58,129 bases of DNA from NCBI GenBank assembly GCA_001724265.1, contig MEDY01000167.1, positions 1 through 58,129 on the forward strand. Direction: 5' to 3'. Under the pieces are notes generated by a model that saw only the letters and a list, made by a program, of their open reading frames with translations, ran no database searches and was not told the origin of the DNA. Origin of the DNA: Rhizaria sp. SCN 62-66. Its lineage: Eukaryota. The position numbers were made by a program, and so were the translations under genes. How positions within the stretch are numbered: position 1 is the first letter of the stretch; the number at the start of each line of letters is the position of its first letter. Shown in pieces: positions 8,701 through 40,958 of this stretch.

Positions 8701-11700
8701 GACAGCTACATTGGCGACGACCTGCTTGAGGCCTCGCCCTGCTTCCCGCGGTACGTTTGTGATTATTTGGCAACATATAACACACTGTAACGACATTATT
8801 TTGTGTGCCTATTGTTTTTCATCTAGATTCTTGTATCAGATCGAAATTCTGAATGTATCGATTGGGCTATATATAGAAATAACCTCACACTTATGCTCAA
8901 TCCTCACTTATACTCTCCCCTTTCTACTCTTTACGAACTCGTAACACTCTGAACAACAAAACCCCGCTCCCAGTCTGATGGTGCCCGTCGGCATGCTGAC
9001 TGAGGGCGACCCGAAGCAGGCGATGCGGTTCATCGTGCATCACCAAGACGACTACAGCGTCCGCGTGTCTGGCTCCGTCGTCGTCACACTGGCCGAGCTC
9101 AGGGAGCTTGCCATGCGCGATGTCGCGATCGCCGCGGCGAGGTGCGTCCTTCCTCAAATACTACTAAAGCACTGATTTAACGCCATATATATCATCATTA
9201 TTGCATGAATTTTTCTTAACATCCACTTTCACTTCCCATGTGTATCCTTAATTCTCACATCTCTACGCTTTTCTCGTCATTTTTGTGGCTGTGTAGGAGG
9301 GCCAAGATCATCAAGAAGAAGGACCTGCCTCCTGCCTCGAGCTCGGCCTTCACCGACTACCTCCAGCTGACGCTCACGCCCCCCGAGGACGCCCCCTCGC
9401 ACGTCTACAAGCTCGTCCCGGGCGCCAATAACCCCAACAACCCCGTTAACTCTGCTGCGGGCGCTGACTGGAGCAACCCCAGCGCCCCGGGCGCCACGGC
9501 CGCCGCCAACGCCGCCGCGACCGCCAGCAACGCCACCGGCGCTGGCGCCGGTGCCCCGGGCGCCGCCGCCGCGACCGCCGTGGGCGTCGACGCCGGATAC
9601 CCGCGTCTGTACGTCGCGATCAAGCAGCCCTTCTTCGACCTGACTCCTGCCGCGGCGCTGACGCCGCTGTACAAGCCGGTGCCGTTTGTGCTGCGCAAGG
9701 CGCACGTGTTCATGCAGGTCTCGACGTCGCCCACGGTCAAGGGGCTCACGAACCACGGCGTGCGGGACCAGCTCGCCGCCGCGTACTTGGTGTTCCGCAC
9801 GTACTTCAAGACGACGCCGCGGCTCAACGACTTCAAGGACTACCCGGGCCGCAGCAAGCCTGCGCTGGGCGGCGCCGGCGGCCGCTTCAGAGTTCTCGGC
9901 GGCGGCGGTACCGGCTCGAGGCCGGGGTCGAGGCCCAGTTCGCGGCTTAGCTTCGATCAGGGCGGCCGGGGCCGGACCGACTCGCGGGTCGATTTCCACG
10001 ACAGCTACATCCACACCAACGACGCCGATAACAACAACCACACTGGTAACAACAACAGCAATGTTAGCTTGAACGCGATGTCCGAGTACGCCGCCAACCG
10101 TAAGCGCCACGGCAAGGACTTCAACCCGACCCCCTTACCCCAGTCTAAGCGCCTGCCCCACGACGACGATCACCACGACGACGAGGACGACGACGACGAC
10201 GAGGACGACGGCGACGTGGTGACCGGCGGCAAGACCGAGGCCTCCGACGCCCTCAAGCGCGCCCCTGGCAAGCGCGGGGTGACCGTTGGCGCGACGCCGG
10301 GCACCAAGCGGCGCACTCTTAACGCCGCGGCTGCGAAGAAGCACACGAGCACACACACGACTGGCGCAGCAGGCACCGGCATGTCGTCCAACGCCACGCA
10401 GCCCTCCAAGGGCGGCTTCCAGGCCAACTACGGGGAGGCAGCTCCCGCGACTGGCCCCGGGCCGGCCAGGGGTAGTCTGCTGGCGCCGCCGGCACCGTCG
10501 TCTCGGGGCGCTAGCGCGGCAGGCGTCAGCGCGGACAATGAGTTCAGCGACAGCACGGCGCTGGGGCTCATGGGCTTTGATAACGCGACCCACCCCGACT
10601 CGATGTCGCCCAACAGCAACGGCAACAACAATAACAATAACAACAACGGCAATGGTATCGACTCTGACACGGACCCGCTGCCCAAGCTCGGCACCGGTGG
10701 CCGTGTCATCACCGCGACGCCCACGGGCACTGCAGGCGACGACGAGGACGAGGACCAGGAGCTGTACCAAGAGGTGACAGTGTTTGCGACTACGGTCAAG
10801 CACCAGAACGGCGTCCTCACGTGGACCTTCTCAGGTATGTTTAGCGATATATTTCACCAACAAAGCTTTATCATGTCCTGTTTTCTCTCTACAGTCAGTA
10901 TCATATCGCAATCTAACATTTTTTTTTACTTTTATTTTTTCTCTCTACTCTTTTCTTTGCTACATTATATCTAGTCCCTGTGACTGTGCTGACGGGCGGG
11001 TACGGCAACTTCGACCAGCAGATCAAGGTCTCGCTCGTCGACGCCCTGTCGGGCAAGGCCGAGCGCCGCAAGGAGCGCGGTTTCACCGTCACAACCTTGC
11101 GCGAGATGATCCTCATGGGCACCAACCAGTGGACACTGTACAAGCCCGAGGCGGAGCCCCCACTGGTGGACGCTAACGGCAAGCCCTACATCCCCAAGGC
11201 CGCGCAGGGCAAGGGCGCCGGCAAGACCGCCGCCGCCGCCGCCGCTGCTGCCAACGCCAAGGACGAAGCGAAGGACGCCGAGCCGGCGCTGGTTGTCCCC
11301 GGCGCTAGCGAGAAGTACCCCTCCCCGTCGGCCGTGATTATGACGCCGCTGCCGTTCGACCCCGCCGCCGTGCTGCTGACCGGCGTGGCACCGCCCGCGC
11401 AGACGCACAGCGTGCCGCGCGTGCCCGTCAAGAACCCTACCGCGGCCAACCCCGCGGGTACTGGTCCCGCTGCCACGAGTACCGGCGTCACGGGTACTGG
11501 CGGCGGTAAGGCAGGGTCGGTGCCGCCGACACCGAGCAACGCCAAGGGTGCCTCTGGTACCGCTACCGCTGCCGCTGGGACCCCCAGCACTGCCATTACT
11601 CCCACCGCTTCTCCCCCCGCCCCCGCCCCCACTGCATCTGCCACTGCGACTGCTAGCGCGACCGAGGTCACCGTGTACGGCCTGCCGCCCGACGCCGCTG

Positions 11701-14700: not shown

Positions 14701-14733
14701 AAGGCGCTCAAGGCAAAGCTCGGTGCTGTGTAA
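5706..14733 (+). CDS. ~2,616-aa protein, mostly low-complexity, with divergent C2-like segments; exons 5706-7961, 8125-8298, 8467-8750, 8974-9141, 9297-10834, 10975-12372, 12543-13085, 13244-14733
   Basis: Seven AT-rich GT-AG introns, all phase-consistent (total 7,851 nt). FTPYVCLQRQRKLPDGRALWDTVASTEP and QIKVSLVD...GFTVTTLREM resemble copine-type C2 strands; the domain call is tentative. Ends TAA. Confidence 0.75.
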
Positions 14734-17555: not shown

Positions 17556-18786
17556 ATCGAAAGTCGAGCGCTAAATATTGCGTGCTGCACTTATTTTGTT
17601 TCATTGGAAGCTGAATGGTTATTTAAGTTTGGTTGGAGGTTCTTTTGTTGAAAATACCCTTGTATATTTGTGATTTTGCGTCGATGTTGGCCACGCTATA
17701 CTCAGAGTGTTGATGCATTATTGCTCCGACCGGTTTCTGAGTGTGGTTGCTGTTGTTGCTGTTGTTCGTGCATTGGCGTTTGTGGTTAGAATAACCTTGG
17801 TGTGACGTTTATAGTTAGGAGTATATGTAGGATTATGCACTTTATTATCAAGATAAACACACAGTTTAAGACGAATATTCAGCGCATTCATATTGCTTTC
17901 TGTATGCTCAGGTGCCTCAGATGATGCTGTCCTCGTACCATTGACCGCAGTAACATCGGCTCTCTCAAATCATCAGAATCATCTCACGAAATTCTTTCTT
18001 AGTTCACATCGCACACACACACTGTAGCGCTTACAGTTGCACACGTAACGTGTTCACGTCTTGCTAAATCTGTACGAAGTACAATTCTGTCGTCAATTCT
18101 GTCGTTTCAGTCTCGGCGCCAGTGCCAGTGCCAATGCCAGTGCCGGTGCCCGTGTCAGTGTCGCCGGAGCCGGAGTCGTTTCCTGAGCCCGTGTCCACCG
18201 GGATTTCGTTGTGTCTGATGACGTTTTACAAGTATGCGAAGCTTGCCAGGCTTTTATGGAGCCTCCCCAAGGTGAAGCCTCACACGAACTCCATCGTTCG
18301 GCGCAAGCGCAAGGCCCACATTGCCGAGTAACTTGGCTTACAGGAGCGATGAAGTGTTGCAAACATTGAAAACATATGTTTAAGTTTGTCAATCTGCGTT
18401 TCCACATGTAAAAACAACGACACACGATGTAAAATAGCGATTATAACAACATATTTAGATTCAGCTTGGTATGATGATTGATACCACGGTGACATATACT
18501 ACGAAATTATGCGTCGATCCAGTGTTGCCAGATTTGGAGGCGGACGGTCGAGACGCTAGGCGACAGCGAGGCTTCTTTCAGATGAGTGTATCTCGACAGA
18601 AGTCCGTTCTTTCGATAAGCCGGCGGAATATCATATTTAAAAACACATTTTCGCTGTTTTAACCTATTTATACATTCTCAATTCACGTTTCGTGCTCTAT
18701 ATCCTAACTTAGGTTCCCACTCCTTTCGAGGCGATTCAGAGCACACCTACTTGCTTCCCTGCCGTCCGTTCACACTCGCAACGGTG

Positions 18787-19739
18787 ATGTCAAGCTCTGC
18801 CAACGCGCCCATAGCGATGAGCGCTACTGGCAAGAACGTTGCCGAACAGCACGCTGCTAACAACGCGAGTGGTGGCGCGAACACTAGCACGGCGAGTGCG
18901 CCAGCGAGCGTCAGCGCCACCAACAACACCAAAAGCAACGACGATGGCGGCGACGATGACTTCCTCTCAATCCTGCCCGACCTCTCCGTCTTCACGCTTA
19001 ACGCCAACTACGAGAACGCGCCCGACGTGACTAACACCCTGACAAAGCTCGCAGGCAGCACTGCTGCACTGTCTAAGAGCTTCGCCGCAGTGGCCGAGGC
19101 GTCGGCGTCGCAAGTCGGCGAGCTGACGGAGTTTATGGTACGCTTCAATATAGGAACAAAATGCCAATATATCTACGTATAACACTACATTTTACGTTGT
19201 ATTAACATTTTAATTGATATAGGTATGATTTATAGCGAGGAATTGCAGTTTCAACGTAAAATATGAGTCGCTGACACCATCCGCTTCATTCGCTTTCGCG
19301 TTCAGTTTGGACAACTAGAGAAGCTTGCCGAACATGCTGAGGCCACCCGCGATGCTAGCGAGGTTTTGGCGGTGCAGAGCGAGGTTTTTATGGCCAAATG
19401 CGCACAGCTCAACCGCCAGCTGTCGCGTTTGGACAGGCTGGAGGGGCAAATCGCCTACGTCGAGGTACGCATATAAAAACAAAACTATCTCAAAATATCT
19501 TTAAATCATGGATACGAAGCTCTGTTTAACGCCAGATGTATGTTTATTACAACATATCAGCCTGTTTTGTTTCACCAAGCACTCACATGTGCGATATACA
19601 TGCTGTTTTGCGTCTTGATTGCGGCCCTCTTCAGAAGCACTTGCCTCAGCTCGAGGTGCTGGTCGACGCCCGCATCAAGAGGGCTGAGGCCGAGAACGCG
19701 GCCGCGAAGCACAGGCAGCATCAAGCTGCGGCCAAGTGA
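18787..19739 (+). CDS. Small coiled-coil protein, weakly BLOC-1 subunit-like (cappuccino/BLOC1S4 or BLOC1S2 type); exons 18787-19137, 19306-19464, 19635-19739
   Basis: Two phase-0 GTACGC..CAG introns. Heptad segment KCAQLNRQLSRLDRLEGQIAYVEKHLPQLEVLVD. Family call is from recollection only. Ends TGA. Confidence 0.65.
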
Positions 19740-20158: not shown

Positions 20159-20863
20159 ATGAGCGACTCCGAGTTGTCTACAATGGTGTCTGAGGCCGTT
20201 GCCACCCTCTTCCCCAACGGCACCCCTTTCGTCCACAATGGGCAAGCCTTCATCCGTAGCCCCGAAAACCCGCTTGAGTGGACGTATCTGGAGCTGCAGG
20301 GGGAGATTCAGAACAACATCAACCCGTCCACGCACAAGGGCACGCTCTCGGGCGCCACCGGGGACCACCTGTGGGCGATGCCGCTGGGCGAGTTTACAAA
20401 CGATCCAAAAGTACGTGAAAATTGAACGAAACAAAATGCATGTACAATTTATGACGACATTATTTATGTATATATACTATCTACTCGTTTTAGCGACTAT
20501 CTTTAACGTTTTGTAAGCGAGTTACTCAACAACTCTTATCTTCTTGGATTCCCTGCAACTCTCATCCAGACGCCGACGTTGCGCATCGGCAACAACTTGC
20601 TCAACGGCGCCCGCAAGAAGCTCGCCAAGCCCCTGCTTGTTACCCGCAAGGAGCCCGACCTCCCCGCTCCCGCTAATAACGGCTTGGCTTCTTCGAGTGA
20701 TATGAGTGAGGCGATCAACCCACAGTCGTTTCTGACGGAGCCTGCCGCCAGTACCACCGCGACGAGGCTCGTCGTCGTCGGTGTTATCAGGGAGAAGATC
20801 GTGTTCGACTCGCGGCCCACGCCGATCATCTCGTCGGCCTCTACTGTTACGCTCTCGAAGTGA
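20159..20863 (+). CDS. CTF8: Chromosome transmission fidelity protein 8 (Ctf18-RFC subunit); exons 20159-20410, 20570-20863
   Basis: EWTYLELQGEI, LRIGNNLLNGARKKLAKPLLV and VIREKIVFDSRPTPII match Ctf8 blocks. Ends TGA. Confidence 0.9.
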
Positions 20864-21229: not shown

Positions 21230-22423
21230 TTAGACACGCACTTGTTTGTTCTTGCTCTGCGCCTCCTTCAGAGCCTTCATCACCGTGTCAAACGTGAAGA
21301 ACACCGTCGCAGCGCCCGGAATGCCACGGGTAAACGCCACGGACCACCCGCGCCACAGCGCGCCTAAGCGTACAGTACACAGTGTGGGTGCACACAAAAC
21401 AAACAAATAAATAAAGTGAAGTCAATCGACAAATGTGAGATGACACAACAGTAGTGACAGTAGGCACAACAATATGATCGAAAGAGAGCGAGAATACCCA
21501 CAATCAACAAATATACGGTGATTTTCAGACTAATATCACAAATTCAGCAATCTAATGCCTCGTATATGTTGCGTTTCAGTGTTTTACGCCGCACACGTAC
21601 CCACCCCACCCTTGGCGAGGAGCTCTTTGAGAAGTACTGTCGCGCTACGGCCCGTCGTGTCCGTCTGCACCACGGACTTGATGGTGTCCAGCGGCAGCGC
21701 AACCGACCAGAAACCCACGCCCGCGCACGCGCCGGCGATGATGTTGGTCGCGGCCAGGGACAGCGAGGGGAAGTGAGAGGACAGAGAGCGCTTTGCCTGT
21801 TCGTTGGAGGCGTAGAAAGCTGCGACGCCTGGCATGTCGCGCAGCAGCGTAACGCTGAGCCCGCGCCAGAGCGAGAGGACGCCGCCCGTGGCCACGATGC
21901 TGCGCAGCGCGTGCACGGGGCCGCGGTACACGGTCGCGTTCGCAGCACCCGCAGCGCCAGAGGCGGCAGAGGCGACAGTGGCAGAGGCGGGTTTGGCTGC
22001 ATTGCTGTACTGCACCATGAGGCGGTTGCGAATCAGCTCAACGGGGGTCACGACGAGCGTGTTAACGCCGCCGGCAAGGCCGCCGCAGAGGGCCAGCTCC
22101 CCGAGAGACAGCGGCGCAGCTGCCGCCGCCGCCGCACTAGGTTTGGAGCGGAGCGAGATGAGCGTCGACTGCGCGCCGTTGTAGGCAGTGAACATCACGC
22201 TCTTGTACACGGCCTGCGCAACAAGCGGGAATGCCATGCCCTTGTACAGCGCGCGTGCGCCCTCGGCGGCCACGGTCTGCCGCGCGCAGTCGATCGCGCC
22301 AGTGAAGCGCGTCGAGGTCTGCAAGCGCGTTCGGATCGTGTCTAGCGGGTGCGCGACCAGCGTGGAAGCGATGCCGGCGGCGCTGCCCGCAAGCACGGGG
22401 TTCCAACGGGACCAGTCGGACAT
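21230..22423 (-). CDS. Mitochondrial carrier (SLC25; carnitine/ornithine/basic amino acid group); coding exons 22423-21601, 21363-21230
   Basis: Three PX[DE]XX[KR] motifs (PLDTIRTRLQ, PVELIRNRL, PLDTIKSVVQ) plus LYKGMAFPL, LWRG..RDMPG, LWRGW..RGIPG. Ends TAA. Confidence 0.92.
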
Positions 22424-23056: not shown

Positions 23057-23193
23057 AAGCTGTCTAACCCGACATCATTTCACATATCACCGCTATTTCT
23101 GCTCGCCCTTCCGCCAAGCATCCTTCCCGAGCTTCCCACAGCGAGTAAACTCCTCGATCCCTTCTGAAAGCAGGCCTTTCACGCATAACCGCA

Positions 23194-23510
23194 ATGTCCG
23201 GGCGCGGCATCGCGAGCATTATGCGCGCGGCCTTCCCCCCGCGCAGCCCTTTCGTCTCGCCCGTTCCCTCCCGTCTCCGCCCTACCTCCGCCACTACATC
23301 CACCTCAGTCGCCGCCGCCGCCGAAGCCGCCGACACCGCCGTCGCCGTTGCCACCGCTGCTGCTGCCGCGAGCCGCCCAGCGTTGTTGCACGGGGACGCG
23401 GCCGCGACCAGCTCGCCCCTGCTGCCCCCGCTGCCCCGGCTTGTGTCGGTCGGCGAGGTCTGTGACGAGTCAAAGCCAAAGCCACTACCACAACTACAAC
23501 AGCAGCCACA

Positions 23511-23542
<32 letters not shown>

Positions 23543-24026
23543 GCAGCAGCATTACAAGCGCAGCCGCGCCCCAATCAGGCACCGCCGTTGTCATTACGGG
23601 CTCGGACAACAGCAGCTCTGTCGCCGGCAACGGCGGCGCGCAGCTGGCCATTGCAGCCACTACCGAGAGACCCTCTGCTTCTCTCGACGCGCCGTGCACC
23701 GTCACCGTCGGCCCACTTGGCCCTCTTGACCCGCTTGGCCCGCTTGCACTTGGCCCCTTCCAGAGCGCGTTCGACCACGCGATCGAGTCAAACGTCAGCT
23801 CTAGCTCTCATGACTCTAACTCTAGCTCTGCCTCCGGCTCTATGAGTCGTAGTCAATATAATCGGCAGGTTGTTGCGGCTGCCACTGCGTTTTCAGACGC
23901 TGCCAACAAAGCTCTTACTTCTGCTGCTGCTGCCGCTGCTGCGGCAGCTGCGTCAGCGACCACAAGCTCGAGCATTTGCGCTGACTCTACGACCGCCACA
24001 CCGGCTGCGGCTGATACTGCTGCTGA

Positions 24027-24068
<42 letters not shown>

Positions 24069-27000
24069 TGCGCTACCGGGACTGCTCCAGGCAGTGTTCA
24101 AAGCGACGATTATGCACTCAAAGTCGCCGTCGCCGTCGGTGTCGGAGTCAGCCTCGGAGTCAGCCTCAGCGTCAGCTGACCGCTGTGACTCTGCTCTGGC
24201 TTTATTGGCCGTCAAGACAATCTTTGGACGCAGCTCTGGCTCGTTGTTGCTGCTGTTGGAGCTGTCTCTGCTCGCAATGCCTGCACCGTACCCGGCCAAC
24301 GCTAGCGCACACGCCAGCGCACACGTCAGTGTGAGCGGCGCAGCCGGCACAAGCTCCGCCGGCAGTGGCAGCGGCAGCGGCAGCGGCGCTGCGCTAGCCT
24401 GGGCGAGCCCGGTGTCACACGGGCTGCTCGACCTGTTTGCCGCCGCCGCCGACACGTGGGACTCCCGACGGGCGCACACGGCCATGCGGCTGATGATGCA
24501 GGTCGTGCGTGCGCGCGATGACGACTGCGGACTCAGTGTCCTGGACCTAGCTGCGATCGCGTACAGCCGTCCCAACAACAACAACAACAGAAACAACAAC
24601 AGAAGCAACAGCGGCAACAACGGCAGCAACGCTAGCACAAGCCCGGGCGCGGACGCGCTACAGTCACAATCCCTGCAGGCGCTGTTTCCGCGGCTTCTGG
24701 CCCTCACAGAGGACTATGTCGTAAATCATAAAGGCGCACGGGGGAAGCTCGTCGAAGCTGTTGCTGTTGCGCTAACCCACGCTATCATGGCGTCAACGCC
24801 AGCATTACCACAACAACAACAACAGCCGCAGCTGCCGCAGCCGCAGCAGCAGCAGCATCAGCAGCAGCAACAGAATGGAAGCATGGCAACGACAGGTGCG
24901 GCGGCTGCTGTTGGTCGACCTCGCGTTGGAGACTATGCACACCTCAGCTCCAACCCCGCCGTCGCCGCATTGGCACACTGGCTCCGGCTCCCTATCCCTG
25001 TCGCTCACGGTCATAGCCAGCCGCTGTCCAAGTCCCCGCCGCCGCCTAAGTACCCGTCGCAGTCGAATTCCACGTCGCAGTCCAAGGACCAGTCGCAGTC
25101 TAAGGACATGTCGTGGCCCGAGTCCCCTGCACCACGCACATAGAAGCAGAAACTACTGCTCCCGCTGCTCCTGGCCGCTTTGGAGACCAAACACGAGGCC
25201 TTGACGGAGTCTCTTCTCCAGGCCGGTGGTGACGCGTTCGCGCCCTATCGAAGTACCCCCTTAGACCGGCTCCGCGCGCCCGCACCCGCCCTGCGGGGGC
25301 GTCGCGGTGGCGCAGGCGAGTCCCAGCGGGACTTCGGGTCCCAGCAAGACTTGCGCCCCGCCGTCTCGTCTGTCTTGGGCGCCACCGCCGTCGCCGCGCC
25401 TCTGGCTGCAGCGCTGGCTCTGCCGCCTCCTCCGGCCTTGGCGAGGGCGACGGCAACAGCAGCGGCGGCAGCAACGACACCCGCACCTCTCTTGATCACT
25501 GTCGCGGCAGCCGCAGCAGCCGCAGCATCAGCGTTGGACGCGGGGAGTGCTGCTGCTGCAGCTGGTGCAGCTGCTGAAACTGCTAGCATGCGTGCCGATA
25601 CGGCCGTTGCTGCGAAGATTGCCAAGATGATCGCTACACGCGCCAAGGCGGCAGCGTCGCGGTACTTACCCGATGTAAGGGCCGCTTCGCCGCATGTCCT
25701 GCCTTCTGAGGCGGCGGCTCTGACCCCAGTCGACGTGCTGATTAGGTTTGCTGACGTGACACTCCTTAACGCATTTCGCGCACCGCCAGCCACGATCAAG
25801 ACTAAGCGGGGGGCTCCGGCGAGGGCTGTGGCCATGCCTGCTACTGCGACTGGGACTGGGACTGAGGCGGCACCGGGGCCGGAATCGCAGCTGCTTGCAG
25901 CTCAAACTGCACCCTTAGAGGACCTAAGCAGCAACAAGGACGACATCAACAACAACAACAACAACAACAGCAACAACAACAGCAACACGCCAGTTCTTAA
26001 GGCGGCTGCAACTCCTGATGCCGGCGCGAACGCACGTGCTCTCACCTCCGCTAGCTCCGATAACCATATCATGCTGCCGCCGATGACGCCCTCGACGCCG
26101 TCCTCGACGACGACGCCGCCGGCGACGACGCCGACGACGACGGCGACGTCGATGACGCCGACTTCGAGTGAGACCAGCGCCGACCGCATCCAAAGCCTGT
26201 CCCCGTCCGAGTTCGAGGCGTTGCTGTACCAAGCGGTTCTCGCAAGCAACGCCAGCGCACTGCGCTCGCTGCTGCTGGCGCGCGGCACTTATCCGGACCC
26301 CCCTTACATGGGCGACAGCGAACAAAGCAGTCAAGCCGCGAATGAGAGCGAGTCAAACCAAATTCAAGCCGCGTCGCCTGACCAAAGTCAAGCCTCGCCG
26401 AGCACGTCCACCAGCGGCAACAATACCGGCCACACCACGAGTCGCCGGTACTTAGACATGACGGCGACCCCCTTAGCGCTGTACTTGGCCATCCGGCGCG
26501 GTGACGAAGGCTGCGTGCGCGCTTTTATCTCCGCCGGTGTCGACCTGTCGCTCTTCACCCGCACCAACGGATTCACGGTGGTTCACGCTGCCATGGACGC
26601 CATCGCCACCGCGGTCACTACGGAGACGCCCAGGTTCACGCTCAACTATGCAACGAATGCGACCTCCACCTCCACTTCCAGCTCCAGCTCCAGCTCCAGC
26701 GGCAGCGGCAGCGGCAGCAGCAACAGTGTTGGTATAAGCCGTGTCAGCGCTTGGGTGTCTGCTTCGGACGCTACTTCTGCGCCACTGACATATCTGAGCG
26801 GCCCCTTGGACAGTCGTGACAGCAGCAACAAGCGGGAGAGCGACGAACTTGCGTTCGAGGACGAGGAGAATGATTTTCTGCCTCAAAACCACTTAGAAGG
26901 TCTCGGTAGCCACTCCAACATGCCAGGTTTTGATGACGTTGCCGGCGCTATGCATCTAAGTACCTCCTTAGACGCGGCCGTGAGCAATAGGCCCCTCCGC

Positions 27001-30000
27001 ACTACTCTCGACGACGCCCCCACCGATGGCAACAACAACAGCGCTTCTGACTCTCTCAGCAGAACAGCAGCATCATCATCATCATCAGCAGCAGCAGCGA
27101 GCTTGAATAGCTCCAGCGCTAGCGCGAGCAGTTCCGCCAGTGTCAGCCCAGCCGTGTCCCTGTTTTACCGCAGCTCTCTCCCGCTCTCCGAGCGCGTTCT
27201 GCTCCTTAACACGAGCTACGCCCCGCGCCTCTCCCTGCTGCGGCTGCTCGTCTTCTCCTCCTCTCTGTCGCCCTGGGCGATGTCGCAGCCCGCGAGCGCG
27301 GGGGGCAAAGCACCGCTCCACGTCGCGGTTGGCTACGGGCTCATCTGCGCTGCGCAGGTGCTGCTGAGCAGGCCGAAGCAGCCCGTCGGCAGCAGCAGCA
27401 GTACTAGCTTCAGCAGCGCTGGCTCCGCCGGCGGCACCGGCGGCAGCAGTATTACGATTGGCAACATCAATGCTGTGAACAACTACAACAACGCTATCGC
27501 CGCGGGTGGATCTCACGATATCGGTTCGACTCGGTATATCTCGGCCTCTAGCGCTGCGTCTGCCCCCAGCAAGGACACTAAAAGCGCGATTGTTGACGCT
27601 GAGGGCGATGAGCTCGATACTGACTACGACGACGACGAGTTTGACTCTGATGGCAACAAGAGTCCGACGGCGGCTGAGAGCACTGACACAGGCGCAGGTT
27701 CTCACCGGAACATTAGTGCTGCTTTACCCAGCGGTAAACCGGCTCGTTACGGCAGCACTGGCAGCTCTGGGACGCCGAGCTATAGCAGCCACAGCTCTCC
27801 TGGTGCTGGTCCGAGCAGCTACGATACACGCAAGACGCGCGTCATCAGGCCCGCCGTCGACGCGCTATGCAGCACCCGTGGTTTCACCCCCCTCGCCTAC
27901 GTGGCAGCGAACGATGTCGTCGTGTACCTGCCCTCAACGACTCTCTCAGACGCGCAGACGTGCAATAACAGCGCAAAGAGCACAGCACACAGTGCCGCTG
28001 ACGGTGCTGGAGCGGTCGCGAACGCTGCGGCGGGTGAGTCCACGTCTTTTTTTGGCCCAAACGTCGCGCACACGGATCTCTCTCTCGCCTATGCGTTATG
28101 CGCTGAGCTCGCCACCGCCGACCCCACAGGCTCTGGCAGCATCAGTAGTAAAGCGCACACAGCTGAGCTGCTGTCACGAGCCCGCGCGTTATCAGCTTCG
28201 CGGGCTAAGCCCCCCGCGGTGACCCACCGCGACCACACTCTGGCCGTCCTGACGCGCGTGCTGCTGCAAGCCGGAGCGGACCCGGACGCGAGGGCGCACG
28301 GTCCAGCCGGGTATGTCAAGACTAAGTGGTCGCTCTGGGGACAGAAGTCTAGTCGCGGCCTGACTTACCCTGAGATTGCTGAATGTAAGGAGGTACTTAG
28401 GATTGACACAAACACTAACTCAAGCAATATCGCAACCAAAGGCGCAAGCACTGACTCTAGTTCTGGCGCTGTCAGTGTGGAGCAGCAGCAACAGCAGCAG
28501 CAGCAACAGGAGCACTCTGCTTTGTTACTCAAACACGACACTTTGGCTCAATTCCTCTCCGTCTACACAGCGAGCGCGGCGCTAAAGCATGCGGAGCGAA
28601 TGGCTATCCACGCTCGCCTGACCACAGCCTGCGCCGCGACGTACCAGTCGATGATCGCGTCCCACAGTCCGGTCCACATCATGGATCACGAGGCGTCTTT
28701 GAACAAGCTAAGGCAGTTTGAGCAGACGGCTGCAGAGACTGACCGCACAAGCCGAGCGGAACGTCTGCGCCTGGAAACGAAGCTCGCGGTTTTGAAGGAG
28801 AGGCTTGCGGCTCTCGAGCAAAAGTTAGAGCTTGAGCCAGATGCGCGGACTTCAGAGGTCGAGCAGACAGGGAACATCACCCATAACGACCACCGCAACA
28901 AAAGCAACACTAGCAGCGCCGATGTCCTGGGTGCGACTGTTAGCGCCAGCGCGAGCGCGAGCGGTGCTCCAACGAAGAAGAATGGTGCCGAAACAGACAT
29001 GGCATCCGAGCCTGAGACCTCCATGACGACATCTGATTCTGCAACTCACCGGGGCGCTGATGACTCGCTGTTGTCTGTCGACTGTGCACCTCTCATCCAC
29101 AGCCCCGCCGCTGCGCTCGCCGCTGCCCACGGTCACATGGTGTCGGCTTTCTACGGCAACGACATCCTGGCGACGACTGCGGGCTTGTCGGTGCTTATGT
29201 TGGCCGCCTATGGCAACAACACAGTCACGGGCAAGATCCTACTGGCCCACGGCGTTGATGCCAACGCTGCTGTCTTTGCGCAAGCTGTGCCCGCTATCTA
29301 CAGCGACGCAGACTCAAGTTCTCCCTTAGATGGGCATGTAAGTACATCTTCAGACCAGAGGACGCGCACCCTGCTCGTGCCGGGCCGGCCGCGGATGCCC
29401 AAAGACACGGCCTTGCTCATTGCAGTCGCCAAGAAGCACCGTGCTTTCATCGCTATGCTCCTGCCGCGGTCACTTCAAGCCTTCACACAACAACAGCTTG
29501 TTGGTGCGAATTCCACTGGCACTCTCGCCTTGCTGCCCCGGCCGGCTCTGGCCGCGTCCGCGCCGACGATGGCCGAGTTGCGCTCCCTCTCCAAGGGCGT
29601 CCTGACGCTGCCGGATGACTCGCGCACTAGTGGTACGGCGAGCGCCTCCGGTGCCAGAGGCGTTTTCGCGCCACCATACCCCGAAGCCCTCTTGCTCGGT
29701 CCTCTCGTCGCCCCTGCCACCACCGCGGCGTCGTCACCGTCGTCCAAAGAGACTTACATCGATGTGAGTTCTCCTAACGACGCAGCGCACACCTCTCCGG
29801 TGGGGAGTGACGAGTGGGCATTCACACCCTTAGTGCCGCTACGCGGCTTATATTCAACGCACAGTGGTGACCACTCTTCAGTTGACGGCAGCGTATTTGC
29901 GTCTGGTTCGAACCAATCGCCATTTTCGACACAGTCTCAGTTCACAAGTATTCGTGTCGTTCCACCTGTTTTGGCTCATCAGGACGGGCAACACGGGGTT

Positions 30001-33000
30001 GACGTGTCCAAGACTGGGCGAGGCGAGTCTCTCGCTAACGACAGCGAGTTCAACCGTGTCGACATGACTGATGGCAGCTCCTACTCTCTCTACAGCACTA
30101 AGAGCGCGGGAAGTAGCAGCAGCGCGTCAAACAGTCTTACGACAACGCCGTCTGACCAGTCGTTCTTCACGCAGAATAGCACCTACACCGCCTTGCTCGC
30201 CAGTCTGGAGAGCCGTGATCACCCGCCGCCGGCCGACAAGGCAGCTGCGGCTGCGCCTGCGAGTGCGGCTGCGGGCGCCGCGGCTGCCCATAGCGCCGCC
30301 GCCGCGATCATGGCCCGGTCTCGGGAGGCCGCCGTGCTGCGTCAGGCGAAGGCAGCTCTTCTCTCGCTCGCTTTGCCCCAGCCGCAGTCTCAGTCTGATC
30401 CGGCCGTGACGGGAGCTGGCAGTGACTGGGTGGCGTACACGCCTCAGAGCCAGTGCGACCCGAACGTCGTCTACGCTGCTCCCTTGCCTCGCTACACGAG
30501 AGATCCGATCGGCAGCACAAGCATTAACAGCGATTCGAGTGTCATTGAGAGTTCGAGCGATTATTCGCTCTCTTTGTCCCTTGTTGCAGCCGAGTCTGCG
30601 TCTAATCTCGCTGCTCCAAACGCTAGCCGCCTTTTCAAACCAAGCCACAGTGGCGAAGACCGTTCAGCGCTCTCTGCCCAGCACAAGCAGCACGCGTTCG
30701 CACTGGCAAGCAGCCTGGCGACGGCGCTGCAAGTCGCTGCAGAGCTCGGAGACGTGCTTACGGTCACGTTGCTCCTTCGGGCTGGTGCTGTGCCACAACC
30801 GAACCCCGCGCTAAGTACCCCCTCAGATTACTATAAGCTGCAGGTGCATCATTCCGTGATCACCGCTCTCATTGCTTCAACCAGTGACGACACTGAGCAG
30901 CTCAGCGTTGATCTCAGCAAGCTCAACCTTTCTGCGCCGCACTCGGAGTCGTTGTCATTGCTCGAGTCCTACGCCAAGACCCTGGTGGCCCGCCCGCTTC
31001 TGACTCTGGTGCAATTGGCTGCCAACTCAAACGCGAGCGGCGACACGCAGCGTGCTCAGTCAAGTCCGGCTTTGGAGTTAGGCCAGTGCCGCTTTACATT
31101 CTTCGACTCTCAGGGCCGGTCCCCCTTAGTCTGGGCTGTTATCAAGAACAGGGCGGATTTGGCACGCTTACTGCTGCTCGCCGAGGCCGCGGCGGTGCGA
31201 CGCGCTTTCTATGCCCAAACCAGCGGCACCACGGTCAACCATGCGAGCACGACTGACGCTGTTCCGCGTTCGTCCGAGTCGACCTCGAAGCGTATGACAC
31301 ATGCCGAGGCCGTGGAGGCGATGCGCGGCGCGGCGACGATTGCCGCGGCGGTCGCACTTGTTCGCTCAGCGCAAAGCCCGTTAGTGTCGCGCGCGCTGGC
31401 AAGTGGCGCGGGCGCGGGCGCACTGTCTGCGGGCACAAACAGCGCTAGCGACCAACGAGCTGATGGGGCGACGATTTTGTGTTTATCGGCATTAATGGAC
31501 TCGCAAAACAGCTACAGCGACGTCGGGACTGCTTTGACACTGGAAAAACTGAAGCGCACATATATCCGTCTCGTTGCTCAAGACTTCTACCGCAAGTTCA
31601 GCTCCAGCTCGGATGGGTGGTTGGTGAACAAGGCTTGCTTTAGGGGCGCCACGCCCTTAGATTACGCATTGCTCATGGGTACTTACACCAACAGGTCGAA
31701 CGCGAGTACCATTGATGCGCTGTTGCGCGCCTGCGGCGGCGCGCACTCGTCGACGCCGGCGCAGCTCGTCTTGCTTGCACAGTCCCAGTCGCCGTCGCAA
31801 TTGCCGTCCTAGTCGCAGTTTCTGGCCGCGGCTGCCTTTACAGCCGCGCAGACGGCGACCACCGCGGTTGCGGCTGCCGTCGATGCTGCCGCTGATGTTG
31901 CTGCTGCTGCTGCTGCTGCTGATGCTGCTGATGCAGTTGTTGTTGATGGGACTGAGAGGACTGCTGCTGTCAGCGCTGCAAATCGCGCGATCAAGGCTGC
32001 TGCTAGTGCGACTAAGGCTGCTGCTTATTTTGATCAAATGGCAACAAACCGCCTCTCAAAGCTAGCACCCGAGGCCGCAACCATCACTCTGGACGCGGAA
32101 AATCCGACTACAACTCAGAAAACGCCCGTGTTTTTCCCTCCCAGCCGCCCCGCTGCCAAAGCGACGAGTATTACGACTGATTCCGCGAAGAAGCCCACCA
32201 CCACCACGAGTGCCACAGCTTCTCTCGCAACACCAGCATCACGTTCTAGTCCTTCTGCCACTTCCAGTGTCGCAACAACGGTAACTGACGTCGCTCTCGC
32301 AGCCTCGGCAGTGCCAGATCGCGTGTCAACGACGGCGACGCCTGAGGCCGCTCTCGCTGCCTCGGCGGTGCCCCTCACTGTTGTCGGCGTTGCCAGTCTT
32401 GCGGCGCGGCTGCTCGTTGCCGCCCGCACCAGCAGCGCGCTCGTGACGATGCCTTACTACACAACGACGACAACAACAACAAGAACCAAAACAGCAATAT
32501 CAGAGACTGCGACAGCTTCCGATGCATCTTCTGCGTCACAGAACGTTGCTCCACCTGTAACAAAGAACCCGTACAAGCTAGCGCGTGCCGCCGCCGCCAA
32601 AGCCGCTACCGCTACGCGGTGCCTGCCGTCGGCCCCCGTCCTTGCTATCGAGCCCTGGTCAGCGCTGATCGCATCCGGCTACACTCTGAAACACGCGAAA
32701 AATTCGCTTAAATTTGCGTACGTCTCTATTCTTCACACACCAAAAACCCTTTTCTCAACTATGCCAATGAAACACAACCATATTTGGCACCGTCTTCACA
32801 AAACTGTGTACTATGCCGGAATCAAACTCGAATTGCACTAATAAGATAACTGATTATTCTATTTCCACTATCCTTTGCTCTTATTGCGTCACTATAGCCC
32901 GCCGAGCGTCATCAATTCCGCCACTTTCAACAACATCGAGATTTCCGCCGACAGCGATCGTTTTATGATGGCAGCTGAGCTTGCCATTAAAACTGACATC

Positions 33001-36000
33001 ATCACGAAGTGGATCCCTGCCAAGCTCAGTGTCGCGCGGCTGTACCAACAGCAAAGCTTCGCGCTGCCCTGCTTTGACGTGTTTTCCCCTGTGGACGCCG
33101 TGTTGTACTCGCCCCCGGCAGCGCTGGCGACCCTCCTTGCCGCGGACGACGCCAAGGCGATGGATGCCTACATCATTGGCCAAGCAGCTGCGGCGAACGG
33201 CCGCGGTCTAAGCGCGAGTGTCAGCGCCCACTCAGAGGCGGGTGAGGTCGAGATCGATGTCGCTGCGGTAGCAGCCGCAGCCAACGCTGTCGTGCTCTGC
33301 GGTCTTGACAACGGCGACACGCACATCACCGACGAGACCAGCTCTCATGTGACCACAACGCCTCTGAGCGACGACTCGTCTGTGACTGTGGAAGTGAGCG
33401 TCACCGGCGCCAACCGCACCGTCACCGCACAGTCTCTGCTTTCGCTCTGCATTTTCCACCGCGCGTACAACTGCGCCGCGCTGCTGCTGCGTCGCGGCGC
33501 GCTGCCGGGCGCCAGTGCGAGCGCCACCGAAGCCGTGGCCGCGGCGGCTGCCAGCGGACTGGCGATCTGCGACTGGCCGTACTTCAGCCCTGTGTTGTCC
33601 GACAACGGCTCCTCGAAGAGTCGTTTATCCGGTGGAGCTGATGGGACGCAGGGTGGACCGACCGTTAGCATCACGCGTACTGTCGAGCTGTCGGATACGG
33701 TCGTGGTGGCGCCGACATTGCCTCGCACTGGGCGCTTTGTTCCGTCGACGATCGTGAGCCACTACAGCAACAGCAGCGCCGATAGTGAGCTCGGGGATGC
33801 GAGCGCTGGTCACCAAGAACGCACTGCGCGCGTCGGCCGTTTACTGGTCGCTCAATGCAAGAACTTCGGTGTTAAGGCTCACGCCGGGTCACAATCTGTA
33901 TGGACGCCGGGTACCACCGAGTTTGCGTCTCAGGCAGCTCACTCACTGCTCAATTCGCCTGCATTGGGGACACTGATTCCTCGTGAGTCGACTGTCCATC
34001 CGTTCACTATCGCAAAAGCCCCGTTGTACTTGCCGCTCGCTCCCTTAAATGCAGATCCAAGTGCGAAGACAGACACTATGAGTGGGTTTGTGTTCGATTT
34101 GCGCTGTCTCAGGGGGTGGTCGCCCCTCCACCTGGCGAGCGCCCTCGGCGACCTCAGGGGCATCTCCCTGCTTCTCTCCGCAGGCGCCCCGCTTGACTGT
34201 GTCGACGTGACAGACCAGACCCCTCTCGTCACGGCCGCCATCGCTGCTGCCTCCGGCTACCACAATCACTTGCTCTTCCCCAGCAACAACAACAACGACA
34301 ACAACATCAACAACAAAGCAGGCAGCGGAAATAAATTCTCGCGCTCGAATGCGGCTGTCGACAGTTTGGGCAAGTCCGCGACCGCCGAGCTCGTGACCTA
34401 TCTCTCCCGCCTCGGCTTCAACGGCGCCGCTGTGCTCGCATCGCCCCTCTACAACACCACGTCCACCGCTGCTGCCGCAACGACGACGACGGCCGCCGCG
34501 GCCGCCGCGGCCGCCGCCGCCGCCACCCCGTTGATCACGGCGGCGGGCGTGCCCACGCATGCGCTGGCGCTCTTGCTGGCTGGCGGCGCCGGCTCCAGCT
34601 CCAGCGCCAGCGCCGCGACCCCCGCGGCGGCGGGCGCGGGCCCCGGCTCCGAGGCCGCCACCGCGGCCGCCGCCACCGCAGTCAGCACAGCGAGCGCGAA
34701 CGTGCTGTCGGGCGTGCGCGAGTGGCTGGTCCGTGCCGCGGCGCGCGGCCAGCGCGAAGCTGCGGTGGTGGATCTGACGCTGGCGCGGCTCCAGGCGGCG
34801 GCCAGGCAGGCGCGCGCGGCGCGGGCGGCCGCGGTGAAGACCCTGTTGGCCACGGCGAGCGACACTGGCAGCGGCAACGGCGATGGCGCTAACAACAGCA
34901 GCCATAACAGCGGCAGCAATGGTGCTGATAACGGCGGGGAAAAGGTGATCAATCTGCTGCGGACGCTGACGCAGAGACTGAACACTGCTCCTCCACACAG
35001 CAACGCAGGCAGCTCTGCCACTCCTCGTGCGAATCCTGGCGGTGCCTTAAGTGTCTCTGCGAACTCGAGTGCAGCTGAACGTGGTGGGCAGGTTAGCTCG
35101 GGCGCGGACCCAGACCCGAGCACGCTTGGGAGCCGGATCGACGCGACGAGCGTGAGCGCACAGAGCGTCACCACCAGTGCCGCGAGCGATGTGTTTGCCA
35201 ACATCCACGCTTTATTCAACAGGGCCGCTCGTAATAGCACGTCTAGTACCAGTGTGAGCGCCAACACGGCTCCGAAGACAGACACCAACGCTAGCGATGA
35301 CAAAATCACTCCCAACGAGGCGAGCACGACGGCATCCAGTACGGCGGCATCCATCGCTCCCACTGAGAGTGATACTGCTCCTGCCGGTGTCACCAGTGCC
35401 GCTATTGCAAGTGCGACCGCGAGTAGTTCGCGTGTCAGTGACAAGGAAGTGCTGGCTGCCATCGTGAAGTGTGAGGCAGCTCTTTCTCAAATCAATGCAG
35501 TACGTTATCAAAACAAACAAATATCGCATGAAAAGCCACATCTACTTTGCTAATTTTTCAGTATGACATTAAAATTCTCATTTACAATGCACCATTTGCT
35601 TACCTGATACTTGCTTTTTGCGATACTCTTTCCTTTCAACCTGTTTAGACCGCGAACGCCGCCGTCGCGACCGCGCTCTCGTCCCTCCGCGCCTCCTTCG
35701 TCCCCTTCAACACCCCCGTGCCCTCCGCCGGCGGACTGCCCCTGCTCGCCGCCGTCGCCCCGCTCCACTCGGCGCTGCCCGGGCTGCTGCGCGCGCTCGT
35801 CCGCGGCGGCGCGCGCGCTAATGCGGTCACCGACGGCGGCTGGTCACTCCCGATGCTCGTCGCACAGTCGCTCGCGCACAGCAACGGCGCGCACACCGCC
35901 AACAGCAACAACAACAACAACAGCAGCAACAGCAACAACAGCAACAATGCCGCTACTGCCGCGAACGCTAGCGCGAGCGCTAGCAGTGGCGGCGCCACCG

Positions 36001-39000
36001 CCGCCGGCGCCGCCGCTAGCAACGCCACAGGCGCTGGCGCGGGCGCGGGCGCGGGGTCGCCACAGAGCGCCGGCGACGGCTCCAGCGGCGGCGGCAGCGG
36101 CAACGGCATTGCAAATGCGTACGCGGCGTCCGAGTGGAGCTGCGTGGCCGAGCTGCTGCACCTGGGCATCATCAGCCCCGTCACGGCGTCCCTGCGCCAC
36201 GTCAGCACGGCCGTGGCCGTGGGCGGGGTCGATCCTGCCTTCGCTTTCGCCGCCGCGGCCACCGCCGCCAGCGCCAGCGCGGCCGCGAACAAGGCGCGGT
36301 CTCAGGGGGTGCTTACGCTCGCACAGCAGCAGTCGACGCACGGCAACGGCTTGGCCGGTGGCAGCGCTGGCCAGGGCCAGGAAGTTAAGCCGCCTGTCAC
36401 TCCTGGTAGCTCTTCTGTTCTTCCGGCTGTTGGCCACAAAGTTAAGCCGGCGCCGTTCCCCCTTACGCGCGAGGCCTTGCACTTGTACGCCAATATCCAG
36501 CTCTCCCCGACGACACCGCCGCCAGGTACGATGACAGCAACAACAGCAGCGACGCCGGCAGCCGCGCCAGCGACGACTGCACCGAGCGCCGCAAGTCATA
36601 GCGATTTGCTCTCCGCGTCTTCAAGCCACGACTTTTCGACTCTGTTCACTTTCTGGTCGCAAATGCCGCCCTCAGTGCTTGCCTCCGTCTCGGTCAGCCC
36701 CGTGCTGCTCTCAGTCACCAACAACAACACCACCAGCCACCACCACCGCTCTCCGGACTTCCCTAACTCTAACCACACCCGGACTCGGAGCCACGCCCCT
36801 TTCCCTTTCCCCAGCGCGAGTGCGAGCGCCGACCTGGCCACTACGACCGGCGCCGGCGCCGACACCTCCGGCGGCTCGCTGCTCACGGTCATGATTCGCG
36901 CCGGCGCGCCCGGCGCGGCCGTGGCGGCCGTGCTGCGTCTGGCGCCGTCACTGGCGGCCGTCACCGACGGAGTCGCCGTCGCGGGGCGCGGGGTCGACGG
37001 CGCCGGCGTGCGGGGCGTCGTGCTCGCCTGCAACAGGGGGCTGAGCACCGCCGTGGCCACCGACGGCGACGACGCGCTCGGCGACGGCGCTCTCGGCTTT
37101 GCTGGCCAGTCGCATGATTTGTCGCAACATCTCAGTCGCGCTTCCGCTCTCAGCGGTGCTTCCGCGGGAATCAAGGGCTCGTACACCGACGCCGAGCTGG
37201 CCGGTCTCGCGCTGCGGTCACTCGGAACGACGGTGCTGCCGCTCGAGTCGCAGCCGACGACCGTGAGCGAGGTGCTTGAGGCGCGGCAGCAGTTTATCTG
37301 GTGGCATCAACACACGAGCGTAAGCTCGAAAGGTTACTTTTTAAAATCCAGTGCAACTGATTTAGCGTTTCAGGGGCTGCTCAAGTCGCTTGACTCCACA
37401 CACTTCAATTATCTGCTCGCGAAGTCGCGCAATGACGGGCAGGACTGGATGTTCACGATGCACCGGCGGGACCTGAGCGCTGAGTTCTACTCTCTAAAGA
37501 AGTATCTCCTCAGGAACGGCACCACTCCTGGTGCAAAAGGAACGACTAAGCAGCTGCGCGGTGATTTGTTTACACCCAGGCCCCTGTCCGAAGCTGCAAT
37601 CGTGCTGCTGCACTCGTACGTCCGCGCTTTGTCGTACGGAGCTGTGACGACTGACATCTTCTCTCCCGTCACGGCATCGCGCCACATAGGGCCTGACACG
37701 GGTGCTGACAAGGGCGATTTGAGCGAACAACAAGTGTTCACGACGATCGACGGCGTTCCCATGGCTATGAACCTCAACCGCGCTCCGGACACGGACGCCG
37801 ACGCTGGGCAGCACGCCACACGCACACTCACGAGCATCGGCTCCGCTGCGTACCCACAGAGCTACTACTCGCACTTTAAATCATACTTGCTTCAAATGGA
37901 ACGTGGCGGGAACATGCCACAGTCTCTGCAGTTGCCCCCGCCTCCCCCATACTGGGTCGCGCGTGCGCAGCCGCTGCTGGCGCCTTTTTTCGACCCCGAC
38001 AACACTGCCCTGGGACTCTTGCTGTTGGCCCCCACGCTGCGCGCTATCGGCAGCGGCAACACCCACATCACCGCGGCTACGGCGGCGCCTAACTCCTCCG
38101 CCAAGAGTCTTCACGCCCAAGCTGCTGGCACGACGGATGGCGCCACAATGCGTCTCGGCTACGATGGTGCTCGCGGCGGGGCAGGCGCTTCAGGGCGAAG
38201 TCCGCTCATTTTGGCCATTTCAGTTTTACAAACACTGACCAACTCCAGCGTCAGCAACACGTTGAGCTCACCTCAGAAGCAGCAACAACGCAATGGTAGC
38301 ACCAGCAGCAGCGGCGGGAGCCTTTCTCCGTATCAGCAGAGGCAGCAACAACAGATCGAGGCTCAAGCGGCGGCTGCTGCTGTAGTAGACATCCTGATGG
38401 CTCCTGTGCCCCCGCGCACGATCACAGTCAAGCTGCCGCAGTCTCACGGCAAGACTATCACGGAGGCAGAGATTGTTTCCACTTCTAATCCCACCAACGC
38501 AACTGCTAGCCCGAGCCCTCTTGCCAGTGTCGCCAGCGCCGGCGCCGGTGCTCCTTCCCCTAACACAAACAACACAAGCTCCAGCTCGGCTGCGTTGCTT
38601 AATGACGCGCTGTTCTTAGAAGCAGCACAACTCAGCAGCCTCAGTCGCACCTCTACGATGACGTCGCTGCTGTCTGCGCTGCTGCCGCTGCCCGTGCCTG
38701 TGTGGCTGGGGCCTCTGAATCAAAGCCAGGCCGCGTTCGTCAAGTCCCTCGCACTCGTACTGTACAGGAAAACGCATTCGTTCAGCAAGAAGAGCACTGC
38801 AACCAATGCTCTTGCTGATGCTGCTGTTGCTGTTGATGCTAGCGACGCGGTGACTCAGCGTTTCATCAACAAGTCTGTGCGTGCGTTGGTGAACCGTCGC
38901 ATCGAGAGTATCAGCCTGCAGTCGCCGCCGCCGCTGCTGCTGGCGGCAGCGCGCGCCCCGAGTGTGGTGCCGCTGCTGGTGTCGGTTGGCGCCTGGCCGC

Positions 39001-40958
39001 TGTGCTTATACCTCCCCCAGTCAAATAGAGGTAGTAGTTCTGCGTACTTGAGCAACACGAGGAGCTTGTTGGAAGGAACGCGCATCACGCACTATAATCA
39101 CAACGTTTTCACGTCTGCAAACGGCATCACGGACATGAATGGCGTCCCTGCCAATGGCACGAATCAGCCGCAGGCGGCCTCCAGGAGCCGCCGGCATGGC
39201 CGCTGTGTCACCGTCGTCGCTAACGCGGACGATTTCACCGGCGACGGCGATGACTATGCCGGTGCACTCGTACAGACCGAGCCCCTTACACCGCTGATGG
39301 TACTCACACGATTGCGCAATGGTATCAGCACAACGCCTTTCTCGCCGCCTGCGAGCGTAGGCGCCGCAAACAGGAGCTCTCCTGACAACTCCCACAACGG
39401 CGGCGCGTTCACGGTCAGGTGCGGCGGTGAGCCGGCGGTCAATATCGCGTGCAAGGCGCTTGCAGTTGCGGAGGCAGCCACCTTCAGCGCCAAGTTCCGT
39501 GATACCAATGCCAAAGCTTCAGCAGATGCTGTTGATGTGGACGGCGACTCGGATGTTAATGCTGAGGCGAATAGTAGTGCCGTTTCCACGGTGCTTGCTG
39601 TCACATCTGGCGATAGCGCGACTTTACGCGCCTTGATCTCGACTCTGACTCCTTTCACACAGCAGCAGAAACAGCACTACAGCCACTACAACATTGACAG
39701 CTGCGCCCTTACCAGTAGCAGTGCCGCAACCAGCGCAGGCTCTGACAGGGTTGCCACCGTTGCGGCTGCGTTTGAGGCCGCCGTCAAAGCCCAGGCTCAG
39801 GCGAGCTGTGTGGCTAGGACTACAGCCGCCGCCGCCGGTGCCCACAGCGCCCAAGCAGCCGTCGCGTCCATTGCGTCGGTGGTTGCCTCGTCCGCCGTCT
39901 CCGCTGCCGCGGTGCTGCTGCTGCGGCCGCCGCTGCCGTACACACAGTCGCTGCTGCATCTGGCGGCCGCGGCAGACTCGGCGGAGGCTGTGGCGCTGCT
40001 GTTGGACCACAAGATTGGGCTTGCATCTGTCACAGTTAACAATGACAACAACGATCACAGCGGCGAAGATGATTCAACCGAGACTGACGCTGCGGCTGCT
40101 GCTGCGAAGGAAACTGCCGATGTTGCTGCGGCGTGGGGTATCCCCTTCGATAGCTCACGCGCTGTAGATACTCAGAGCGCTCCTGTCAGCAACAGTCACG
40201 ATGATGCGTGTACTCTGTGGGTGCTTGATTGCGACAGCCGTGGGATCACCCCCTTAGATGTTGCGCGCAATGTCAGGGCATCCTCTGCGGTACTAACACT
40301 GCTCGAACAGTATGAGTCAACGAATGTGTTTAATCAATACCGCCAGCACAAACGCAAGCTGCAACAACAGCTGCATCTGCAGCGGCAGCAGCTGCTGCAA
40401 CAACAGCAGAAGCGGCAGCAGCAGGCGGCGCACCAGCAACAGTCGCTCTCCGAGTTGGATGCGACGAGCAGTCGCGGGTCTGACCAAGGCGCTCATGCTG
40501 GCGCAGGTGCCGTTGGCGCGGTCTCAGGCGACGCCGACGCCGATGCCGTCAGCGACATCATCATGCTCGTCAGCGGCGCCGCTGCGCCCACCAATAGCGG
40601 CGACAGTAGCATGAGCAGCAGCAGCAACAACAACAACAGCAGTGCCTGCGCGAAGGGGGTGGAGACCGCGAGCAAGCTTCGGAGGCAGCGGCAGATGCTC
40701 CGTATGCAGGCCCGACAGCAGGGACCTGGGCAGGACGCTGCTCATGGGCAACGGCATAAGTACGAGAGGGCGCCGGCTGCCCGATGGCGTGCGCAGCCGC
40801 AGTCCCAGTCGCAGTCACTCTCTAAGCTCGAGTCACAGCAGCTGACGGACGAGAGCATGCGCGCATTGCTCTTTCCAGCGGTTTTTGAAGCACTGGTCTT
40901 TGATGATGATACTGCCAACAATAACAATAACTCACCGAAGGGCAACAATATTGGCTAA
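23194..40958 (+). CDS. Giant ankyrin-repeat protein, ~5,811 aa if TAG at 25141-25143 and 31810-31812 are read as sense; exons 23194-32717, 32898-35499, 35649-40958
   Basis: ORFs 23194, 25180 and 32038 share one frame, separated only by single TAGs. Two GTACGT..TAG introns link the later ORFs in phase. About 15 ankyrin-like repeats, e.g. GKAPLHVAV, GRSPLVWAV, GATPLDYAL, GWSPLHLASALGD, GITPLDVA. Ends TAA. Confidence 0.75.

Follow-up and report, generated by a model that had tools for sequence, protein, structure and literature searches.

Two in-frame TAG codons in a giant gene of an uncultured bioreactor eukaryote are more probably young nonsense mutations than signs of an altered genetic code

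We analyzed positions 1 to 58,129 of the forward strand of contig MEDY01000167.1 (assembly GCA_001724265.1, Rhizaria sp. SCN 62-66), a stretch that we call the window. The window is nuclear DNA of an uncultured eukaryote from bioreactor/wastewater metagenomes, and it carries a predicted giant gene whose first exon contains two in-frame TAG codons, TAG1 and TAG2. A reading made from the sequence alone (the sequence-only reading) had proposed that UAG is a sense codon in this organism, probably for glutamine (Gln), while UAA and UGA remain stops. We found that TAG1 and TAG2 are genuinely present in the dominant strain's DNA and are not an assembly artifact or chance. We judge them more probably to be recent mutations that broke the gene, with a changed code as a less probable alternative. 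We give an even chance to the reading in which the code is standard and both TAGs are recent nonsense codons in the giant gene.

The giant gene is predicted to span 23194-40958 on the plus strand. Joined, its three exons give a 17,436-nt coding sequence (CDS) with 5,811 codons ahead of a terminal TAA. The parts of the gene model are the following.

23194..32717, plus strand: predicted exon 1, 9,524 nt, from the first in-frame ATG to a GTACGT donor; carries TAG1 and TAG2
25141-25143, plus strand: TAG1, codon 650 of the spliced CDS, in an S/Q/P-rich linker; ACA TAG AAG CAG AAA, T-[TAG]-K-Q-K
31810-31812, plus strand: TAG2, codon 2873 of the spliced CDS, in an S/Q-rich linker; TCC TAG TCG CAG TTT, P-S-[TAG]-S-Q-F
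32718..32897, plus strand: predicted intron 1, 180 nt, AT-rich, GTACGT...TATAG; its removal preserves the frame
32898..35499, plus strand: predicted exon 2, 2,602 nt; weak Pfam Ank match
35500..35648, plus strand: predicted intron 2, 149 nt, AT-rich, GTACGT...GTTTAG; links frame 1 to frame 3
35649..40958, plus strand: predicted exon 3, 5,310 nt; terminal TAA at 40956-40958, followed by AT-rich DNA

When we re-read the sequence, both TAGs were found where the sequence-only reading had placed them, in frame 1 of the plus strand inside an otherwise open exon of ~9.5 kb. Save for TAG1 and TAG2, this frame is open from 23149 to 32841. Over exon 1 (23194-32715, 3,174 codons), frame 1 contains 2 stops, both TAG, versus 70, 133, 89, 73, and 136 in the other five frames. 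Thus, the openness of frame 1 far exceeds chance. A GC scan agreed with the earlier statement that the DNA is GC-rich and coding-like on both sides of the TAGs, with neither an AT-rich spacer nor an AT-rich intron. The GC content of the 300 nt 3' of TAG1 is 0.71 and that of the 300 nt 3' of TAG2 is 0.59, compared with 0.31 to 0.47 after 11 real gene ends, and GC is at least 0.45 in every 60-nt stretch up to 600 nt from either TAG. The first in-frame ATG comes 148 codons after TAG1 and 75 codons after TAG2. Codon-usage scoring near the TAGs placed frame 1 best on average on both sides, a weak signal, with the codon usage of the giant gene being unlike that of the other genes.

The raw frame is closed by TAA TAA at 32836-32841, which lies in a 220-nt AT-rich island. 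These two TAAs and a following TGA fall within predicted intron 1, and the sequence indicates that exon 1 most likely ends at the GTACGT donor at 32718 rather than at the TAA at 32839. Because no RNA joint was seen at either predicted intron among the contigs aligned to the window, introns 1 and 2 are ones that we infer. The splice "joints" that the contig alignment listed were rejected as low-complexity artifacts, with sides of only 18 to 27 letters.

Judged from its sequence, the predicted product is an orphan protein, lineage-specific and low in complexity, along which ankyrin repeats are scattered. Between TAG1 and TAG2, Pfam matched Ank (4.6e-11) and Ank_2 (5.1e-11), at residues 449-483, 1325-1375, and 1990-2012 of the intervening piece. 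The Ank match in exon 2 (1.1e-3) is under the curated cut-off, and no Pfam Ank match occurs in the 664 amino acids (aa) that precede TAG1 or in the 148 aa and 301 aa that follow TAG1 and TAG2, respectively. The earlier statement that ankyrin repeats continue across both sites thus did not hold, as Pfam Ank is confined to the region between the TAGs and to exon 2. We compared a 1,200-aa query spanning TAG1, with TAG read as Q, with 1.84 billion cluster representatives. It returned only the gene's own database call (P0011) and one marginal match (E = 3.5e-4). Since no orthologue among these representatives spans TAG1, the residue opposite TAG could not be read. We found no repeats within the giant protein to which the TAG sites could be aligned. 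AlphaFold2 run without an alignment on 250 aa around TAG1 gave a mean pLDDT of 51.5, too poor for use.

If both codons were once CAG, their surroundings resemble Q-type repeats: (Q)KQK at TAG1 and SQS...(Q)SQ at TAG2. The TCC-CAG-TCG that the context of TAG2 was said to echo from nine codons upstream is in fact 8 codons upstream.

We examined other data sets for the bases at the two sites. The contigs of runs X2 and X3 cover 24879-25931, which includes TAG1, and 30332-31881, which includes TAG2, with 0 differences from the window. The concern that reads would show CAG instead was therefore not borne out, as these contigs carry TAG at both sites. X2 and X3 are samples other than X1, the possible source of the window, and the contigs aligned to the window have a depth of ~4 to 8. 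We counted X2 and X3 as one data set because their figures are identical, seemingly the result of filing twice. The listed pieces of a diverged strain, X4, and of a polyA-RNA run, X6, reach neither TAG, and no transcript was seen to be spliced or to end at the TAGs. The 13 differences outside those listed include 3 of the 14 T>C changes of X4, so X4 may have C at either site. Three database gene calls (P0011, P0013, and P0014; 2,074, 2,210, and 492 aa, on 3, 3, and 1 contigs) make up all three members of their cluster; each ends at TAG2 and is identical to the window. The public gene calls at this locus are prokaryote-style, with a start at TTG 25180 or ATG 25588 and a stop at TAG2. The predicted 649-codon piece before TAG1 and the predicted exon 3 protein had no entry in the protein collection.

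These data bear on whether base-calling or assembly error produced both TAGs from true CAG codons. The low depth of ~4 to 8 per contig leaves some room for error. The same letters are found in a second data set of another year and in separate assemblies, and the three gene calls on 3, 3, and 1 contigs stop at TAG2; moreover, two independent errors that both make TAG in one frame are very unlikely. We consider error to be close to negligible as an explanation.

According to the reading that we favor, C-to-T changes would have turned CAG (Gln) codons into TAG1 and TAG2 under the standard code. In this strain, a very large gene that evolves fast and is probably dispensable would have been disabled or truncated only recently, with translation halting at codon 650. 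We propose that the sequence past the TAGs is still coding-like because there has been too little time for decay. A giant protein without a detectable relative fits a fast-evolving, nonessential gene. The types of stop also agree with mutation. Among the single-base nonsense changes possible in the giant CDS, 55 to 59% yield TAG, so that two TAGs out of two are unremarkable. CAG>TAG alone makes up 12 to 36% of the possible nonsense changes, depending on transition bias, and is the largest single class under transition bias. As expected from mutation, the stops are confined to one gene (1 of 14) and are of the type that 55 to 59% of changes would give. In these respects the locus resembles premature-stop alleles or young pseudogenes of large nonessential genes: one gene is hit, TAG is the commonest expected nonsense codon, and the protein is a fast-evolving, low-complexity orphan. 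The confinement of the TAGs to one gene, at a usage far under that of the precedents, speaks against a code change.

Several observations weigh against recent nonsense codons. The spliced CDS is a multiple of three, and its sole internal stops are TAG1 and TAG2, with no TAA, TGA, or frameshift. The relaxed constraint of a young pseudogene was not seen, as no further stop or frameshift occurs in 5,811 codons; this fits only a very recent event. Strain X4, which is ~0.3% diverged from the window, has 33 listed coding differences, 19 synonymous and 14 nonsynonymous. The synonymous share among the differences listed is 8/14 between the TAGs and 9/16 after TAG2. With a neutral expectation of 26 to 32% synonymous, 19/33 gives an overall P of 0.0002 to 0.003. 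This synonymous excess suggests that the frame was under purifying selection past both TAGs until very recently. The density of X4 differences is ~10 times higher in the predicted introns (6 in 329 nt) than in exon sequence (33 listed in 17.4 kb), and the two X4 indels listed, 3 nt at 24898 and 6 nt at 27388, are both multiples of three. Nonsense changes are only ~2% of neutral substitutions in the giant CDS, and the chance of a second one within 5 to 20 neutral substitutions is 0.10 to 0.33. At least two data sets, from different years, have contigs with the TAG allele. An allele without the TAGs was not observed, and protein look-ups returned only window-identical sequences. Unlike such young pseudogenes, the giant gene would combine two nonsense changes with no frameshift or decay in its 5,811 codons, a synonymous excess, and no intact allele seen.

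To weigh a changed code, we turned to stop usage and TAG counts in the other genes, with codon and stop counts that cover the 58-kb window and a 1.7-kb contig, L001, that continues it. Of 14 gene ends, 9 are TAA, 5 are TGA, and none is TAG, a distribution that sits poorly with recent nonsense mutation under an ordinary code. Several of the 14 ends rest on gene models predicted in the present analysis. They are located as follows.

TAA ends: the open reading frame (ORF) at 2-880; the gene at 1951-3996; the multi-exon gene at 14733; the thioesterase gene at 17395; the mitochondrial carrier after its intron; the giant gene; the gene at 46171; the Pfs2-like WD40 gene; and H2B in L001
TGA ends: 19737, 20861, 42780, 43370, and 52872

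The probability of 0/14 TAG ends is 0.044 at a normal TAG share of 20%, 0.10 at 15%, and 0.23 at 10%. Conserved genes ending at TAG had been named as an outcome contrary to reassignment; finding none (0/14) fits reassignment, but the test is weak (P = 0.04 to 0.23). TAA closes 9 of the 14 genes despite a coding GC content at third codon positions (GC3) of ~0.7 to 0.85, and the DNA just after the stops is strongly AT-rich. We dismissed a minus-strand ORF at 18750-19007 that ends in TAG, as it is antisense to a plus-strand gene.

If UAG were reassigned, in-frame TAGs would be expected in further genes. We found none in 12 coding stretches of other genes, which comprise 6,013 codons, 227 of them for Gln (189 CAG and 38 CAA). 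The second and third exons of the giant gene (~2,640 codons) likewise had none. Genes with recognizable homologues, namely those for the phosducin-like, mitochondrial carrier, Pfs2-like WD40, thioesterase, and H2B proteins, contain no in-frame TAG. Overall, TAG accounts for 2/455 Gln-type codons (0.4%), and 1/14 genes has an internal TAG. A TAG usage of 8% predicts ~20 TAGs in the other genes, where the probability of none is 6e-9. The lack of TAG in these genes means that a reassignment would need a usage below ~1% of Gln codons. If two TAGs were spread evenly over 11,823 codons, the probability that both fall in one exon is 0.07 and that both fall in the giant gene is 0.24. A tRNA scan found no tRNA genes in the window or L001, and an Rfam scan was also empty. 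The window does not contain the gene for eRF1.

We consider it unlikely that UAG is a sense codon here, probably for Gln, read by a tRNA(CUA) with UAA and UGA still stops, in an incipient or very low-usage state. In that case, a weakly expressed gene would so far be the only place to tolerate TAG, at linker positions free of constraint. It is similarly doubtful that a non-ciliate wastewater eukaryote has been caught at the earliest stage of UAG-only reassignment to Gln, with UAG gone as a terminator and reappearing rarely at unconstrained positions, a snapshot of codon capture. Such a code is consistent with the lack of TAG among the 14 ends and the dominance of TAA (9/14), as in known UAG-reassigned lineages, and with a giant gene that is intact apart from the TAGs. 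It is also consistent with the synonymous excess downstream of both TAGs, the GC-rich DNA whose frame is open to either side and lacks an ATG for 148 and 75 codons, contexts that both suit Gln, and the recurrence of the TAGs in another data set. The resemblance to UAG=Gln codes (NCBI table 15, Iotanema, Hartmannula, and Trochilia) lies in an in-frame TAG, ends that are only TAA or TGA, and a preference for TAA; table 15 reads the TAG site of the giant gene as Q, and the contexts are Gln-compatible. The difference lies in usage. UAG makes up ~8% of Gln codons in Iotanema spirale, with 204 in-frame UAGs in 126 genes (PMC5304391), and 18.5% in Hartmannula sinica and 31.8% in Trochilia petrani, with 78 to 84% of genes affected (PMC11687900). 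Unlike these lineages (8 to 32% of Gln codons, ~80% of genes, and conserved Gln positions), the present case has 0.4%, 1/14 genes, and unalignable linkers, so that described cases are 20 to 70 times higher and affect most genes. The clustering of both TAGs in one exon and their absence from genes with recognizable homologues, given above, also count against a sense codon. Codes in which UAG alone is reassigned, to Leu, with UAA and UGA as stops, are a further likeness. They are described for the rhizarian exLh (384 in-frame UAGs in 71 genes; PMC5304391) and for uncultivated phyllopharyngean ciliate genomes, where UAA and UGA terminate (PMC11687900). Unlike exLh, the giant gene shows no sign of Leu, and its usage of UAG is lower by orders of magnitude. 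A priori, a reassignment of UAG alone is very improbable outside ciliates; PMC5304391 describes two cases.

The TAGs could also be leaky under the standard code, with basal or programmed readthrough by near-cognate tRNAs yielding some full-length protein, so that the allele is tolerated and not null. As in programmed stop-codon readthrough, an open, conserved frame runs on past the stop, and the frame is intact and shows selection past both TAGs. Unlike in programmed readthrough, there are two stops in series deep in the gene, and two events in series would probably leave very little full-length product. UAG-CAR-YYA is a readthrough context type; the codons after TAG1 and TAG2 are AAG and TCG, which are not of that type. 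No downstream RNA structure stood out after the TAGs (z = +0.6 and -1.2), either above shuffles or above control stretches of the giant gene (-2.0 and -0.7). Taking these points together, we rate readthrough as quite improbable. Even less probable, and in our view very unlikely, is that unconventional GC-rich introns or U-to-C RNA editing take out or alter the TAGs ahead of translation, or that the TAGs are the ordinary ends of three adjacent genes. Both TAGs can be read as YAG acceptors (CATAG and CCTAG), but the predicted introns here are AT-rich, 140 to 240 nt long, and start with GTAYG, the TAGs lie in no AT-rich island, and no GTAYGT donor occurs in 23149-28311 or 28312-32717. Database gene callers do split the locus at the TAGs; those calls are prokaryote-style, with TTG or ATG starts. 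An AT-rich spacer follows 11/11 real ends and is absent after the TAGs, where 148 and 75 open codons lack an ATG. Splicing, editing, separate genes, and error are together improbable, and we leave the remaining probability unallotted among the readings.

The surroundings of the giant gene are of the same general character. Coding DNA in the window is GC-rich (GC3, ~0.7 to 0.85), and intergenic DNA and introns are AT-rich; the predicted introns that we read closely are 140 to 240 nt long, start with GTAYG, and end with YAG. Upstream, 5631-14733 (plus strand) is seemingly one long multi-exon gene without a Pfam family and with a terminal TAA. Its predicted AT-rich introns include 7962-8124, 10835-10974, 12373-12542, and 13086-13243, and the TAGs that close raw ORFs there (10972, 12540, and 13175) fall in introns or at their ends. 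Two small genes missed by the ORF scan, at 18788-19739 (plus strand, three exons) and 20159-20863 (plus strand, two exons), both end in TGA. In the mitochondrial carrier gene (21249-22423, minus strand), removal of a predicted 237-nt intron at 21364-21600 restores the conserved C-terminal carrier motif, and the true stop is a TAA near 21249, not the TAA at 21584. The nearest relative of the phosducin-like protein is 57% identical. At 53590-56064 (minus strand), we found a gene for a WD40 protein that resembles the polyadenylation factor Pfs2/WDR33. Its C-terminal tail, ~400 aa long, is rich in G, P, and Q, and look-alikes of its WD40 domain in Atlas are named Pfs2.

The histone H2B gene begins at the window end (57975-58129, plus strand) and continues in L001 at 1-289, where it stops at TAA. 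There is no H2A gene in the 1.8 kb of AT-rich DNA upstream of it. L001 is a 1,740-bp metagenome contig that we found by an exact 43-mer; it gave the H2B stop and nothing more. Further DNA of the organism had no match in the viral and genome collections or in an H2B-based scan of genome contigs.

If TAG1 and TAG2 are nonsense alleles, they represent an ordinary strain-level loss of a large orphan gene. They would mainly serve as a caution against calling a code change from a pair of in-frame stops in a single gene of poor conservation. The locus apparently persists in bioreactor samples of several years, with the TAG sites checked in X2 and X3 only, and the question is therefore testable. If instead UAG is truly a sense codon, the UAG-only reassignments outside ciliates would number three, counting the two described in PMC5304391. 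The present one would be the first caught at very low usage and would bear directly on how stop codons are captured.

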